IMG/VR virus record: IMGVR_UViG_3300045988_156427
Reading direction: 5' to 3' (one strand)
DNA length: 64,000 nt
Origin: a virus
Lineage: Duplodnaviria; Heunggongvirae; Uroviricota; Caudoviricetes
The notes under the pieces are model-generated. The model ran no database searches. It saw nothing but the letters and a program-made list of their open reading frames with translations, and was not told the DNA's origin. Shown here piece after piece: positions 1,824 through 54,393 of this stretch; the first letter of the stretch is position 1, and every line of letters starts with the position of its first letter. The translations under genes and the position numbers were made by a program.

Positions 1824-2384
1824 TTAGTGCATTATGTTTGCCATTTCATAGGCGTCAGCCAGCAACTCCATCTCTGACTTGTTCAACAAGGTGAATTCTT
1901 TCTTGCCTCCTACCACGCCATCGGCATGAACAGGGACCAGCCAGGGGTATTTTTCTCTTACTTCAGCCGGTGCTGCATGCTGGTGGTGCCATCTGCAAAG
2001 GGGCAATTGCTTTTTGTGACAACCCGGCGCGGTACGACCGGAGATATGGTGCAGAGACACCTCTTCAGATATTACTCCATGCATGTAGCAGGCAATGCAG
2101 GGGAGAGTGCCAAGAGCATTGGCGATAGTCTGTTCCTCCTCCGTCGGTGTTCGCCCCTTCAAGCCACGAGATTTTATTTTTACCGCACTTTTCCGCGTTT
2201 TGCTGGCTGGTGGGCGCTCTTTCTGTTTAGCGATACGGCGGTCGATAGAATCCCGCATTTTCTGATATTGCGATTCTCGCCAGGCGGGGTCAGCCAACTT
2301 TTCCCGTTGCCGAGCGATCGCTCGTTCTCTGGCTGCCTTCTGCCACTCGCGGCGCTGTTCAAGTTTTTGTTCGATTGTTTTCAT
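1824..2384 (-). CDS. ref: Ref recombination enhancement function, HNH-type endonuclease
   Basis: Track ORF 1824..2489 trimmed to internal ATG at 2384 (MKTIEQKLEQRREW...), 186 aa; His/Cys HNH-like C-terminus; matches P1 Ref as I recall it. Confidence 0.85.
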   Translation of the reverse strand: MKTIEQKLEQRREWQKAARERAIARQREKLADPAWRESQYQKMRDSIDRRIAKQKERPPASKTRKSAVKIKSRGLKGRTPTEEEQTIANALGTLPCIACYMHGVISEEVSLHHISGRTAPGCHKKQLPLCRWHHQHAAPAEVREKYPWLVPVHADGVVGGKKEFTLLNKSEMELLADAYEMANIMH

Positions 2385-2499: not shown

Positions 2500-2631
2500 G
2501 GTATATATTTTGTTTCTCGCGAATCACATTTTTTCACTTCAGTACCTGTGTGCTATACTCCTTCTTGATTGATTGGATGCGGAATACAAACCCGCTCTTT
2601 TGTGCAGCCTGGCTCCTTGCCAGGCTTTTTT

Positions 2632-2943
2632 TTATTTCATCATGGAAGCGGTTAACGCTTTGGACCTTGCTGAACTGATTGAAAGGGCATTGTTTACCTT
2701 ACCCAGGAGTTCGCCAAATTCCCCCATCACTCTAGTAAGCCCGCGCCGCGCTTCCTCCTCCGTTGCATTCATCACAAAATGTTCAGCACTCCGCATGCTT
2801 TTAACGGGGAACGCAACAGATATCGAGTCGATATCAGGCATCCTATCGCTCAACTTTACGGTGACAATGACAGATGGCGACAGAATATTAGTGCTTACAG
2901 ACAGCACTACATATTTTCCGTCGATGTTGAAATCCTTTCTCAT
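2632..2943 (-). CDS. hypothetical protein between cre and ref (c8 position)
   Basis: ORF track, 103 aa; positional only. Confidence 0.4.
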   Translation of the reverse strand: MRKDFNIDGKYVVLSVSTNILSPSVIVTVKLSDRMPDIDSISVAFPVKSMRSAEHFVMNATEEEARRGLTRVMGEFGELLGKVNNALSISSARSKALTASMMK

Positions 2944-2993: not shown

Positions 2994-4025
2994 CTAATTG
3001 CCATCTTCCAGCAGGCGCACCATTGCCCCTGTTTCACTATCCAGGTTACGGATATAGTTCATGACAATATTTACATTGGTCCAGCCACCAGCTTGCATGA
3101 TCTCCGGTATTGAAACTCCAGCGCGGGCCATATCTCGCGCTGCTCCGACACGGGCACTGTGTCCAGACCAGGCCAGGTATCTCTGACCAGAGTCATCCTT
3201 AGCGCCGTAAATCAATCGATGAGTTGCTTCAAAAATCCCTTCCAGGGCGCGAGTTGATAGCTGGCTGGTGGCAGATGGCGCGGCAACACCATTTTTTCTG
3301 ACCCGGCAAAACAGGTAGTTATTCGGATCATCAGCTACACCAGAGACAGAAATCCATCGCTCGACCAGTTTAGTTACCCCCAGGCTAAGTGCCTTCTCTA
3401 CACCTGCGGTGCTAACCAGCGTTTTCGTTCTGCCAATATGGATTAACATTCTCCCACCGTCAGTACGTGAGATATCTTTAACCCTGATCCTGGCAATTTC
3501 TGCTATACGTAGCAGGGTATTATAAGCAATCCCAAGAAATGCCAGATTACGTATATCCTGGCAGCGATCGCTATTTTCCATGAGTGAACGAACCTGGTCG
3601 AAATCAGTGCGTTCGAACGCCAATGCCTGTTTTGCACGTTCACCGGCATCAACGTTTTCTTTTCGAATCCGCCGCATGACCAGTGAAACAGCATTGCTGT
3701 CACTTGGTCGTGGCAGCCCGGACCGACGATGAAGCATGTTTAGCTGGCCCAAATGTTGCTGGATAGTTTTTACTGCCAGACCGCGCGCCTGAAGATATAG
3801 AAGATAATCGCGAACATCTTCAGGTTCTGCGGGAAACCATTTCCGGTTATTCAACTTGCACCATGCCGCCCACGACCGGCAAACGGACAGAAGCATTTTC
3901 CAGGTATGCTCAGAAAACGCCTGGCGATCCCTGAACATGTCCATCAGGTTCTTGCGAACCTCATCACTCGTTGCATCGACCGGTAATGCAGGCAAATTTT
4001 GGTGTACGGTCAGTAAATTGGACAT
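2994..4025 (-). CDS. cre: Cre tyrosine site-specific recombinase
   Basis: 343 aa starting MSNLLTVHQNLPALPVDATSDEVRKNLMDMFRDRQAFSEHTWK, ending ...MVRLLEDGN; matches Cre as I recall it; loxP 420 bp away. Confidence 0.97.
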   Translation of the reverse strand: MSNLLTVHQNLPALPVDATSDEVRKNLMDMFRDRQAFSEHTWKMLLSVCRSWAAWCKLNNRKWFPAEPEDVRDYLLYLQARGLAVKTIQQHLGQLNMLHRRSGLPRPSDSNAVSLVMRRIRKENVDAGERAKQALAFERTDFDQVRSLMENSDRCQDIRNLAFLGIAYNTLLRIAEIARIRVKDISRTDGGRMLIHIGRTKTLVSTAGVEKALSLGVTKLVERWISVSGVADDPNNYLFCRVRKNGVAAPSATSQLSTRALEGIFEATHRLIYGAKDDSGQRYLAWSGHSARVGAARDMARAGVSIPEIMQAGGWTNVNIVMNYIRNLDSETGAMVRLLEDGN

Positions 4026-4032
4026 TTAACAC

Positions 4033-4254
4033 TCAGATAATGGTTTTAAGTAAAGTGTACAGGATCGGCTCTGCCTTTACCTGTTTATGGTTCTCGTCAT
4101 AGAAACGCCAGCGACCGCGCGTGCGTTCTATTTTCTCTTCACCGCGCGATAATGACAGTTGGCAACTATCACGATCAAACCCTTTTGCCCGCCAGTAACC
4201 ACGGTTTTTCTCAAGCTCAAGATGAGTGGACACTTTAGCAGTTGAATATCCCAT
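4033..4254 (-). CDS. small protein immediately upstream of cre (cra position)
   Basis: ORF track, 73 aa; GAGGTG 7 nt before ATG; preceded by CCAATCAATCA motif. Confidence 0.45.
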   Translation of the reverse strand: MGYSTAKVSTHLELEKNRGYWRAKGFDRDSCQLSLSRGEEKIERTRGRWRFYDENHKQVKAEPILYTLLKTII

Positions 4255-4443
4255 TTTTCACCTCTGATTGATTGGTGGTGCTAAGTGCGCTACGCGAAAT
4301 CTGTAGGACTAACACCGCCAATTTTTCACAGATTTTACGTAGCGCAACCTTGATCAAATGATCAAGTGGTCACTATTTGACCTGCTAAGGTATTGAACTG
4401 TATGGATTTACAGGTAAATTGATCATATTCAATAACCCTTAAT

Positions 4444-19173: not shown

Positions 19174-19260
19174 TTACCCATGTGCGACGATGCCGCCAAA
19201 AGTGATAGAGAACAGCCAGAAATAGATCGCGGCCATAATGATTTTGAATGCCGTGTTCAT
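19174..19260 (-). CDS. 28-aa hydrophobic peptide, first ORF of a C1-controlled operon
   Basis: Hand translation MNTAFKIIMAAIYFWLFSITFGGIVAHG; AGGAG SD; CCAATCAATCA motif and C1 operator upstream. Confidence 0.35.
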   Translation of the reverse strand: MNTAFKIIMAAIYFWLFSITFGGIVAHG

Positions 19261-19342
19261 ATTTTCAGCTCCTGTGATTGATTGGATACATGCCGCGCCT
19301 TGCGGCATGTTTTTATTTTCACTTTCTCCGTTTTAAAAATCA

Positions 19343-33589: not shown

Positions 33590-34345
33590 GTGGACCTGTA
33601 GATTGGGATATGAACCCGTTACAGGAGAATGCTCTTACCTGTTACGTGCTCCGTTTCGTGGAGCTAACGGCGGGTGATCGGGCCGCACCAGACTGGACTT
33701 ATTTCAGCGTTATGCTCATGCCAGAGAATCAAACTGTGATGGTCGGTGCTGAACTCCGACACAGGGTTGTAGCAAGCCCCGCAAAGCGCGCACTACTGTA
33801 GTTGCGGCACATCAGCCTGTGCATTCACCACAATGTTGAGAACACTGGTTGTCACGCTGCAACGCAACATTTATTCGTAGATTGGGATATGACCCCGTTA
33901 CGCCAGTGTTCTCAACGTTGTAGTGCCGGTTACGGTTCCGGCCAGGCCTCTTCCTCAACGGGGTGTTCTCCATACGGACTACCGTTTATTGGTCGTTCCT
34001 GCGGTTTATGTTGTGAAGCCAGATGCTTATCTTCTGGTTGCTTCAAAGAGCTGCACTTCATCACAACGGTAAGAGCACTCGATGCATTTAAGCCAAGCCC
34101 CATAAGGGAGAATGCCCTTACCTGTTGTGTTGTGATGACCGGTGCTGATCTCCGGCTTGCGGTTATTTCAGACTCTCACGGGCGTTTAATTGCCCCGCCG
34201 AACAGCTCTTTTCCGCAATAGCTGCAATGTCTTTCGCGCATCAGCCTGCGCATTCATCACAACGGTAAGGGTACTTCGTAGGGATTCGAACCCTCTGCCA
34301 AGCTCGGCGATCTCCGACGTCGCAAAATACCCTTACCTGTTGTGC
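33590..34345. repeat. non-coding repeat cluster between the TerB-like gene and the tRNA pair
   Basis: GATTGGGATATGA(A/C)CCCGTTAC at 33601 and 33881; CCTTACCTGTTGTG-like units at about 33631, 34110, 34331 and 34771; inverted repeat GTTGAGAACACTGG / CCAGTGTTCTCAAC. Confidence 0.5.
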
Positions 34346-34421
34346 TGGTGCCGATTAACGGACTCGAACCGCTGACATCCTGCTTACAAGGCAGGCGCTC
34401 TACCAACTGAGCTAAACCGGC
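34346..34421 (-). tRNA. tRNA-Thr (anticodon TGT)
   Basis: Hand-folded GCCGGTT...CTTGTAA...GGTTCGAGTCC...ACCA. Confidence 0.85.
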
Positions 34422-34423
34422 AT

Positions 34424-34499
34424 TGGCGATGGTGGATGGATTTGAACCATCGACCCGTTGATTAACAGTCAACCGCTCTAACCGCTGAGCTACACCATC
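34424..34499 (-). tRNA. tRNA-Asn (anticodon GTT)
   Basis: Hand-folded GATGGTG...CTGTTAA...GGTTCAAATCC...GCCA; 2 nt from tRNA-Thr. Confidence 0.85.
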
Positions 34500-49721: not shown

Positions 49722-50231
49722 ATGGGGCACAATAACACTAAGGGAAACCGTAAATTTATTAAGGGCCGCTATACTGCCAACGCGGCCAAAGGCGAACGAC
49801 TGGTATCTTCTGAATTCCAGCTCACTTTTGCAGGCCATGAAGATATCAGCGTACTGGTTCGCACGTCGCAAATTCCTGAAATGACCCGCGAGGATGTGGA
49901 GGACTATGGTCCGAATGGTGTGAAGTTCAACCAGCACGGTCCAATTCGAAACTCTGGGGAAATCCAGGTCCAGTGCGTGGAGACTATCGAAGGCGATATT
50001 CTTCAGTTCATTAAAGATCGCATTGCGGCGAAGGACTATGTTGATATCACGATGGCTGCTACCCCTGAATCCAAATCTTCCGGGGTTAACGCTGTGACAA
50101 AAGCTGCTACAACAATTGAAATGTTGGACTGCAAAATCTACAGTGATGCAATCGACTTTAGTACCGAAGATGTGACTGCTGCTGTGCGCCCGTCACTTCG
50201 TATCGTCTACAACTGGATTGATTGGAATTAA
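49722..50231 (+). CDS. hypothetical structural protein
   Basis: ORF track. Confidence 0.4.
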   Translation: MGHNNTKGNRKFIKGRYTANAAKGERLVSSEFQLTFAGHEDISVLVRTSQIPEMTREDVEDYGPNGVKFNQHGPIRNSGEIQVQCVETIEGDILQFIKDRIAAKDYVDITMAATPESKSSGVNAVTKAATTIEMLDCKIYSDAIDFSTEDVTAAVRPSLRIVYNWIDWN

Positions 50232-50347: not shown

Positions 50348-50503
50348 TTACCTTTCAGATTCGTAGGCTGTGAAGACAGTGACCTCCGTCTGGCCGGTTC
50401 GGATTCGTACCTCGCAGAGGTCTTTCCTCGTTACCAGTGCCGTCACAATGACGGTTAAACAGATGACGATCAGAGCGATTAATATCGCTTTTTGCTGCTT
50501 CAT
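50348..50503 (-). CDS. Hok/Gef-family type I toxin
   Basis: Hand translation MKQQKAILIALIVICLTVIVTALVTRKDLCEVRIRTGQTEVTVFTAYESER (51 aa); AAGGAGAAG SD; not in ORF track. Confidence 0.85.
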   Translation of the reverse strand: MKQQKAILIALIVICLTVIVTALVTRKDLCEVRIRTGQTEVTVFTAYESER

Positions 50504-50561
50504 AGCCTGCTTCTCCTTGACCTTTTGGTCGGTAAGAGGCTAATCTACGTATGCTAAGCAT
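50355..50561 (-). CDS. mok-like overlapping reading frame upstream of and across the hok-like gene
   Basis: Track ORF, 68 aa, different frame from the toxin, as in hok/mok/sok loci. Confidence 0.4.
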   Translation of the reverse strand: MLSIRRLASYRPKGQGEAGYEAAKSDINRSDRHLFNRHCDGTGNEERPLRGTNPNRPDGGHCLHSLRI

Positions 50562-50684
50562 AGATATGGCCTCAGATTAATGTTAAGCGTCTTGCAGGAC
50601 GCGTAATGTTATCTGGGGCTTTCTTCTATCTGCTTTTCGGGTAATGCCTGAAGCAGATAGCCTCAAGCACCCGCAACGATTGTA

Positions 50685-54084: not shown

Positions 54085-54330
54085 TACGGCCTCGTAAGTT
54101 GATAAACAACCTGCGACCCGCTGCTAAACAGGTGGCAGGACGTGACGGGGTTAGCAGACTGGCACTTACGAAACCAGCAGGCCGAAGCCTCCCCATCACG
54201 CCCCACCATAATTCGGGCGTAACGTGGTTTACGGACACAAAAATACCGCAATATCGGAAATCTGCGGTTGTCCGCGTAAGTATTCAGGCTGCTAAACCCG
54301 GTCGCAGAATTTGCTACGACGGCGGAACTA
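54085..54330 (-). ncRNA. c4: region expected to encode the c4 antisense repressor RNA
   Basis: Non-coding leader between operator and icd with repeated GTTTAGCAGC-like and complementary CTGCTAAC elements; boundaries not determined. Confidence 0.3.
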
Positions 54331-54393
54331 TAAGCCTGAACGATTAAAAGGTCAATATGATGCGAAAAGATAGCATTCGCGACTTAAAAATAC

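Follow-up and report, generated by a model that had tools for sequence, protein, structure and literature searches.

A candidate small RNA gene between c8 and ref of P1-type phage-plasmids and its predicted target sites in phage mRNAs

Among the enterobacterial trans-acting small RNAs (sRNAs), OmrA and OmrB (Rfam family RF00079) as well as RybB and MicC carry their seed at the 5' end. Base-pairing sRNAs are also encoded by temperate phages, such as DicF (Qin), IsrK (Gifsy-1), AgvB and AsxR (EHEC phages), OOP of lambda and sar of P22; the main targets of DicF, AgvB and AsxR are host mRNAs or sRNAs, and OOP and sar each have one target, to which they are cis-antisense. In the phages P1 and P7 it is the RNA repressor c4 (RF01695) that pairs at or near ribosome binding sites (RBSs), thereby adding a post-transcriptional layer to the C1 immunity. 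The c4 RNA is processed from its own target transcript, and its regulation of the icd-ant operon, in which it is encoded, goes via two short elements. P1 is among the most studied phages, and cre/lox comes from exactly the region in which the sRNA gene described here is found.

The window that has been analysed, a stretch of 64,000 nucleotides from the IMG/VR virus record IMGVR_UViG_3300045988_156427, is identified as a P1-type phage-plasmid, its first 25 kb being 96-99% identical to phage P1 and to P1-like phage-plasmids. The plus strand of P1 corresponds to the minus strand of the window, and the positions of genes and operators were transferred from the richly annotated P1 record AF234172. 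A first-pass annotation had drawn attention to an 11-mer, CCAATCAATCA, which recurs in this window close to Shine-Dalgarno (SD) sequences. From the comparisons described here it is concluded, with good confidence, that this recurrence is probably the footprint of an sRNA-target network, in which a candidate sRNA gene between c8 and ref would be matched by complementary sites in mRNAs. The copies of the word are at the following positions:

2566-2576, minus strand: exact copy, in the gap between the c8 stop codon and the ref promoters
4265-4275, minus strand: exact copy, before the SD of cra
19275-19285, minus strand: exact copy, in the pmgT leader
21169-21179, minus strand: 10/11 copy (CCAATCAATCg), within codons 7-10 of pmgS
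8811 (plus strand), 14585 (minus strand), 30123 (plus strand) and 50215 (minus strand): further 10/11 copies

A recount confirms the three exact copies, their coordinates and their common strand as given in the first-pass annotation. The copy at 4265-4275 is indeed directly followed by GAGGTG-N5-ATG of cra, and the copy at 19275-19285 is one base ahead of AGGAG-N8-ATG of a 28-aa ORF; the 10/11 copy at 21169-21179 lies, as had been observed, early in a 420-aa ORF, which is pmgS. The copy at 2566-2576 had been placed in the ref leader, before an AAGGAG taken as an SD. According to the P1 annotation this copy is located between the c8 stop codon and the ref promoters; there is no start codon downstream of the AAGGAG, which is the complement of a CTCCTT just downstream of a -10 box on the plus strand. 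The word is non-random and strand-consistent, and two of its copies abut SDs, but the view that all copies are elements of mRNA leaders does not extend to the copy at 2566-2576, where the other strand carries a separate promoter-to-terminator unit whose 5' end is complementary to the word. That the word matches no known P1 element, as also stated previously, is in agreement with the P1 annotation, where nothing explains it.

The recurrence had been described as far above chance. This is not the case for triple 11-mers in general: there are 48 11-mers with at least three same-strand copies in the window, which form 19 families, some of them being C1 operators and iterons and about 13 of them being orphans like CCAATCAATCA, and dinucleotide shuffles of the window yield 4.8 +/- 1.9 such 11-mers. 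A triple 11-mer is by itself unremarkable in this window, and the claim fails in this general form because the word was chosen post hoc. For the word CCAATCAATCA specifically the enrichment is real. With at most one mismatch there are 8 matches in the window when 2.05 are expected, and the 9-mer core of the word, CAATCAATC, occurs 7 times when 1.04 occurrences are expected; these numbers, 8 and 7, respectively, are each reached in 0/100 shuffles. It is the placement of the copies, not their number, that sets CCAATCAATCA apart from the other repeated 11-mers. Exact CCAATCAATC 10-mers are also seen at 30123-30133 (plus strand) and at 50215-50225 (minus strand), antisense to coding genes, the coding strand encoding Ile-Asp-Trp (I-D-W) both times; these two copies fit none of the target models. 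Two other orphan words of the window are GGCCATTGATA, with four same-strand copies (29535, 44081, 57540 and 59370), and CGGTTAACCAGT, with three copies (10999, 13333 and 46065).

The plus strand at the first of the exact copies has the following features:

2531-2559, plus strand: predicted sRNA promoter, with a -35-like TTTTCA (2531-2536), a 17-nt spacer and the extended -10 TGcTATACT (2551-2559)
2567-2634, plus strand: candidate trans-acting sRNA of ~68 nt, equivalent to complement(1827..1894) of P1 AF234172
2567-2576, plus strand: seed GAUUGAUUGG, at the extreme 5' end of the candidate sRNA, complement of the minus-strand word copy at 2566-2576
2575-2598, plus strand: stem-loop 1
2606-2634, plus strand: intrinsic terminator (terminator scan), with the stem 2606-2613/2619-2626 followed by T8 (2627-2634)

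The candidate sRNA gene lies between c8 and ref, in antisense orientation to both, and with its 3' end it reaches into the stop codon of c8. In the promoter scan of the plus strand the promoter has a consensus score of 9/12 plus the TG. Because the -35 is weak, the promoter call rests on the extended -10 and on the conservation of the latter. The extended -10 ends at 2559, 7 nt before G2567, and the start would therefore be at about 2566/2567, with the first bases of TGATTGATTGG; it is placed at approximately G2567 because the preceding base (T2566) varies between T and C. The predicted fold (z = -3.2 to -3.4) consists of a free 5' end, stem-loop 1, a U-rich linker (UCUUUUGUGC) and the terminator with its U8 tail, the linker and the tail being suggestive of Hfq-type features. 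In the direction of c8 transcription the hairpin 2606-2626 is not followed by a U-run. The C1 operator Oref is 32 bp upstream of the -35 of the sRNA promoter in P1, and no C1 operator is found at the equivalent promoter position in the arizonae type of this element.

Searches with Cre identified elements in which Cre is 64-80% identical to that of P1, each having the sRNA unit downstream of cre on the opposite strand. The lineages that have been compared with P1 are:

L005/CP053320: Salmonella enterica arizonae plasmid, with a near-identical Newport plasmid (L222)
L009: Candidatus Pantoea alvi, found via Cre
L098: IMG/VR contig 3300048927_000308, found via Cre
L321: fifth sRNA variant, on the same contig as L346, among the matches listed in the pattern scans

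The matches listed in the IMG/VR scan with the -10-plus-seed pattern are mostly P1-type contigs and chance hits, and a scan anchored on the non-P1 terminator added one further L098-type sRNA copy in a metagenome as its sole true homologue. The sRNA locus is present in 615 of the 5,426 complete E. coli genomes (~11%). In the D6-like relatives, having a recombinase that is ~41% identical to Cre, the word is absent near the recombinase.

The layout that is shared by these lineages is TGnTATA[C/G]T, 6-7 nt, GATTGATTG, a variable body and a terminator with a T-run. The TGnTATA[C/G]T is found 6-7 nt before GATTGATTG in the P1, arizonae, L098 and Pantoea lineages, and GATTGATTG is unchanged across all P1-type variants and all five lineages. 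As judged from the sequences, four to five lineages keep the attributes of an independent transcription unit, namely a promoter that belongs to the unit and, on that strand, an intrinsic terminator. Of the 57 unique P1-type variants, none has a change in the -10, the seed or the terminator stem; variation is free in the loops, at the base before G1 and on the ref side, and the sequence further upstream of the -10 is highly variable or replaced. The five lineage variants fold alike (z = -3.2 to -4.2), and of stem-loop 1 the structure is kept between the lineages but not the sequence, which differs in each of them. In a 12-sequence alignment 141/141 pair cells are standard pairs and four pairs are changed on both sides, as compared with 26-56% pairing and 0-1 two-sided changed pairs in slid controls on the same alignment. 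The compensatory changes are G-C to A-U and C-G to U-A in stem-loop 1 and, between lineages, U-A to C-G and C-G to G-C in the terminator stem. The seed is predicted to be accessible: GAUUGAUUG is invariant, and the nucleotides from 1 to 6-8 are unpaired in five out of five folds.

The first-pass annotation had proposed to look for complementarity to small RNAs, and this has been productive with respect to the candidate sRNA at 2567-2634. The predicted target sites, all of which are on the minus strand, and the genes that they precede or are part of are:

4265-4275, minus strand: target site 1, CCAAUCAAUC(A), in the cre-operon leader, abutting the cra SD GAGGUG (4259-4264)
4252-4254, minus strand: cra AUG, downstream of target site 1
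4033-4254, minus strand: cra, first cistron of the cra-cre operon (cre at 2994-4025), predicted to be regulated
19275-19289, minus strand: target site 2, (UGUAU)CCAAUCAAUC(A), in the pmgT leader, one base before the SD AGGAG (19269-19273)
19174-19260, minus strand: unannotated 28-aa hydrophobic ORF MNTAFKIIMAAIYFWLFSITFGGIVAHG with a strong SD, between Op88 and pmgT, predicted to be regulated
21170-21179, minus strand: target site 3, CCAAUCAAUC, in codons 7-10 of pmgS (19937-21199)

The comparison with related genomes, which had also been recommended, finds the core at the three orthologous sites, being invariant in four lineages at each of them. In the cre leader the order of the elements is lox, a GATC-rich promoter, a long inverted repeat and then CAATCAATCA, which is invariant in four lineages in an alignment with a mean column identity of 59%. 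The first gene of the operon differs, being cra in P1 and unrelated ORFs in the other lineages. Among 44 unique P1-type cre leaders there is one core variant only, a C to T change, by which the pair becomes G.U. The start codon of cra is CTG, not ATG, in seven P1-type loci (L023 and six others), and therefore cra itself may be dispensable, with the leader being kept.

The inverted repeat of the cre-operon leader, GCGCTACGTAAAATCTGT...ACAGATTTCGCGTAGCGC (window 4285-4346, minus strand; L004 2501-2573), has arms that are conserved in four lineages and a loop that varies freely. It was considered as a 5' mRNA hairpin beside target site 1, and this assignment was rejected: the annotated P3cre -10 is inside the 5' arm, so that the RNA made from P3cre does not contain the whole hairpin. 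An inverted-repeat element with 78% similarity is found near psiA, in the leading region, in ~320 plasmid records, nearly all of which are from Klebsiella; the psiA-linked example that was inspected (one record) is a conjugative IncFIB plasmid. It is possible that the inverted repeat is an ssDNA-promoter-like (Frpo-type) element.

Target site 2 is located downstream of the C1 operator Op88, its promoters and a 5' hairpin (19288-19310), and the region of the site is single-stranded in the centroid fold. The sequence CAATCAATCA-N1-2-GGAG is invariant in four lineages at this site, and the order of the small-ORF leader is the same in each of them: C1 operator, 5' hairpin, CAATCAATCA, 1-2 nt, GGAG and ATG. 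The arms of the 5' hairpin co-vary. The stop codon of the 28-aa ORF overlaps the SD of pmgT. Homologues of this ORF occur in the arizonae/Newport, L346 and L347 lineages, the peptide being kept in four lineages, and it has neither an entry in the P1 reference annotation nor a PHROG match. On the plus strand the hairpin 19288-19310 is followed by a T-run, and a second, cis-antisense sRNA at the 19275 copy was considered and rejected, as no plus-strand promoter was found. The hairpin is also not retained as a terminator, the equivalent hairpin in the other lineages being without a T-run; a 5' hairpin in the mRNA of the pmgT leader is the preferred reading.

Target site 3 begins 20 nt past the AUG of pmgS, which is at the edge of the region where pairing blocks initiation. 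Here [A/G]CCAATCAATC is unchanged in four lineages, as an island amid an N-terminus that varies elsewhere; the amino acids NQSI, which are encoded at this site, could be partly responsible for its conservation.

The complete arizonae plasmid has 7 CAATCAATC copies, all on one strand, and the analytic expectation (hand arithmetic) is ~0.7 for both strands. These copies are in the sRNA gene, in the three orthologous targets and at the RBS of a 50-aa hydrophobic ORF, the two others being of unassigned context. The 50-aa ORF (CP053320.1, L218/L219, minus strand 35226) is preceded by CCAATCAATCgaaGGAA-N7-ATG, and no homologue of it is found in the window. In the L098 lineage the start codon of ref comes directly after CCAATCAATC, behind a terminator (L098 8264, L247 7287, L425 4728). 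This site is kept in a second contig of the L098 lineage despite synonymous changes in ref, and therefore ref may join the regulon in this lineage. Searches of Pfam and PHROGs with Cra, C8, PmgT, PmgS, the products of the small ORFs and those of the additional genes that other lineages have in the cre operon lead to families of unassigned function only, except for a 'PmgS-like head morphogenesis' family.

The three predicted sites are trans-encoded with respect to the candidate sRNA, each is found in mRNAs of four lineages, and their flanks match the sRNA of the same lineage. In the window, target site 2 forms 15 contiguous pairs with the sRNA (-22.4 kcal/mol). In the duplex scan this site is third among 42,648 windows, the first being the antisense strand of the sRNA gene itself; in P1 two of the three predicted sites pair with the sRNA over 10 nt only. 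In the L098 lineage the sRNA begins with GAUUGAUUGG-CU (C11 and U12), and the core is preceded by AG in the cre leader, the small-ORF leader and pmgS, and by GG at ref, which would give a G-C and a G.U pair. Codon 7 of pmgS is AGC in L347 instead of AAC, and this also fits C11 of the sRNA of that lineage. In the arizonae lineage the sRNA has ...GG-UUU, and there is AAA before the core in the cre leader and in pmgS, and AA in orf50. In Pantoea the G-C pair has become a U.G pair, with a U at position 10 of the sRNA and a G in the target. The mean length of contiguous pairing is 12.0 nt when sRNA and site are from the same lineage and 10.25 nt when they are from different lineages.

These observations bear on several other explanations of the recurring word. 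It is highly improbable that the recurrence of a low-complexity (CAAT)n-like word, having no function, is due to chance. The 19 families of 11-mers with at least three copies and the approximately five such 11-mers in the shuffles would be in line with such a view, as would the copies at 30123 (plus strand) and 50215 (minus strand), which look meaningless; against it are the core, unchanged in four lineages at three orthologous sites whose flanks have diverged, the location of one copy exactly at the start of a conserved promoter-to-terminator unit, the 7 occurrences of the core 9-mer as compared with 1.04 expected (0/100 shuffles), and the flanks that co-vary with the sRNA. A cis-acting translational enhancer, an unstructured C/A-rich stretch upstream of the SD that acts without a trans partner, would agree with the two copies that abut strong SDs, with the predicted single-strandedness of the region and with the lack of G in the word. 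It is nevertheless an unlikely explanation, as it does not account for the copy in the coding region of pmgS, the copy at 2566-2576, which has no start codon, or the antisense unit with its promoter and terminator; moreover, it is the exact sequence and not merely the composition that is invariant across the lineages, and the lineage-specific complementarity beyond the core is left unexplained. A DNA-level site for a phage or host protein, such as an unrecognised operator, is very unlikely. The strict orientation of the word relative to transcription, its not being a palindrome and its positions, which follow RNA features (directly 5' of an SD, inside a coding sequence), all disagree with it, as do the copy that starts exactly at the predicted transcription start of a terminator-bounded unit and the flanking bases that co-vary as Watson-Crick complements of the sRNA, even though two copies are within ~100 bp of C1 operators (Oref and Op88).

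Two known RNAs have to be considered as alternative partners of the mRNA sites. Nucleotides 10-18 of the host sRNA OmrA, the sequence of which was verified in E. coli, are AUUGAUUGG, complementary to CCAAUCAAU, and OmrA has an 11-nt perfect match to the cra leader (CACCAAUCAAU, -19.2 kcal/mol). It could thus be that the mRNA sites are targets of the host OmrA, with the phage unit being incidental or a mimic of OmrA; we regard this as improbable. The core ends in an invariant C, which has G1 as its partner in the phage sRNA but would face U9 in OmrA, the match is broken by A16 in OmrB, OmrA forms weaker duplexes at the small ORF (-14.3) and in pmgS (-12.8), and the co-variation follows the phage sRNA. 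Cross-talk with OmrA in addition to the phage sRNA is possible. The other RNA is c4, to which the first-pass annotation had proposed a search for complementarity. Although the window contains c4 with its a1/b1 elements (54128-54333), the chance that the word marks c4 sites is close to negligible: no stretch of c4 longer than 4 nt is an exact complement of the word, and the duplexes of c4 at the three sites have weaker energies (-18.6 to -21.1) than its background, for which the mean is -27.2. The only match of the C4 family (RF01695) in the window is at 54128-54213, away from the word. The other Rfam matches noted in the window are a sok-like antitoxin RNA with a neighbouring hok-like ORF (50498-50672) and three tRNA genes (32646-34499), in addition to c4 with a1/b1.

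The candidate sRNA of the c8-ref gap, which is the preferred reading of the data, has no counterpart in the annotations that were consulted. No family of Rfam 15 is found at the locus at the gathering threshold, the best sub-threshold match being SorX (22.6 bits, with a gathering threshold of 46.6), and OmrA-B (RF00079) is absent from the matches at 2450-2750, even at E <=10. The P1 reference annotation has nothing between c8 and P2ref, and in RefSeq only the neighbouring c8 CDS, and no ncRNA, is annotated in the 615 E. coli genomes with the locus. In the literature that was searched, whose coverage leaves out most subscription journals, the sRNA sequence is absent and c4 is the sole P1 regulatory RNA that is named. 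The candidate appears to be a new instance of an ordinary kind, the base-pairing sRNA with a 5' seed.

The anatomy of the unit, its structure, complementarity, conservation and co-variation are read directly from the sequences, and from these we infer that the RNA is expressed, that its regulatory effect is repression and that Hfq is involved. The candidate RNA of ~68 nt would be transcribed from its own extended -10 sigma-70 promoter and ended by the intrinsic terminator; its single-stranded 5' end, GAUUGAUUGG, would be the seed and the mRNA-sense CCAAUCAAUC copies would be the binding sites. The pairing, of 10-15 nt, would fall within the 30S footprint or at its edge, block translation initiation and probably also destabilise the mRNA. 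Occlusion of the 30S subunit and translational repression are proposed because the target regions are predicted to be single-stranded and the sites are before the SD or early in the coding sequence. Such an sRNA could be a post-transcriptional brake on the cre-operon, pmgT-operon and pmgS transcripts in lysogens, where it is expected to be present because its promoter is without a consistent C1 operator. It is possible that the repression spreads from the 28-aa ORF into the pmgT operon because of the overlap of the stop codon with the pmgT SD. Transcripts of c8 that read through would carry the full complement of the sRNA, since there is no U-run after the hairpin in that direction, and as a speculation, they could titrate the sRNA.

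On balance, we lean towards the wider view that P1 and its relatives encode a second, undescribed riboregulator, a 5'-seed sRNA that would control, at the post-transcriptional level, the cre operon, the leader peptide of the pmgT operon, pmgS and, in one lineage, ref. Beyond the present evidence, it may be the sRNA that in reality accounts for 'c8', a poorly defined locus of lysogeny establishment, and the sRNA may also reach into host regulons, which is conceivable because 9 nt of the seed are shared with OmrA. If the proposal is correct, it adds a new layer to the control of P1, beside the RBSs of the cre operon and of two C1-controlled operons, which bears on the dosage of Cre, the leakiness of lytic genes in lysogens and possibly the choice between lysis and lysogeny. 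It would also give a concrete function to the non-coding gap between c8 and ref, reveal an unannotated small membrane protein, and offer a tractable case of co-evolution between the sRNA of a phage-plasmid and the targets in its regulon. Resistance genes are found on many P1-like plasmids, and the element itself is widespread.

When compared with the known systems, the candidate sRNA is similar to OmrA and OmrB in its general properties, these being RNAs of ~70-90 nt with their own promoter, a single-stranded 5' seed, a stem-loop, a U-rich linker and a terminator with a U-tail, which pair over short stretches (~10-15 nt) at or near the RBSs of several mRNAs. The similarity includes part of the seed, AUUGAUUGG (window 2568-2576), which is identical to nucleotides 10-18 of E. 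coli omrA (L003 601-688). Outside these 9 nt there is no homology with OmrA or OmrB, and the candidate sRNA differs from them in being encoded by a phage-plasmid and in having the phage's own genes as its conserved predicted targets. With type I toxin-antitoxin systems (hok/sok, zor/orz and tisB/istR) it has in common a small hydrophobic ORF, the RBS region of which is complementary to a small RNA. In contrast with these systems, its gene is 16.7 kb from the 28-aa ORF, neither overlapping nor adjacent to it, no plus-strand promoter was found at this ORF, the pairing extends over 10-15 nt and there are other targets. It differs from DicF, AgvB, AsxR, OOP and sar in that its conserved predicted targets are trans-encoded phage genes. 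The c4 RNA, whose a/b target elements are RF03163, is encoded by the same genome; unlike c4, the candidate sRNA is a separate gene, 51 kb away in the window, with a seed at its 5' terminus, at least three unlinked predicted target transcripts and no sequence in common with c4.
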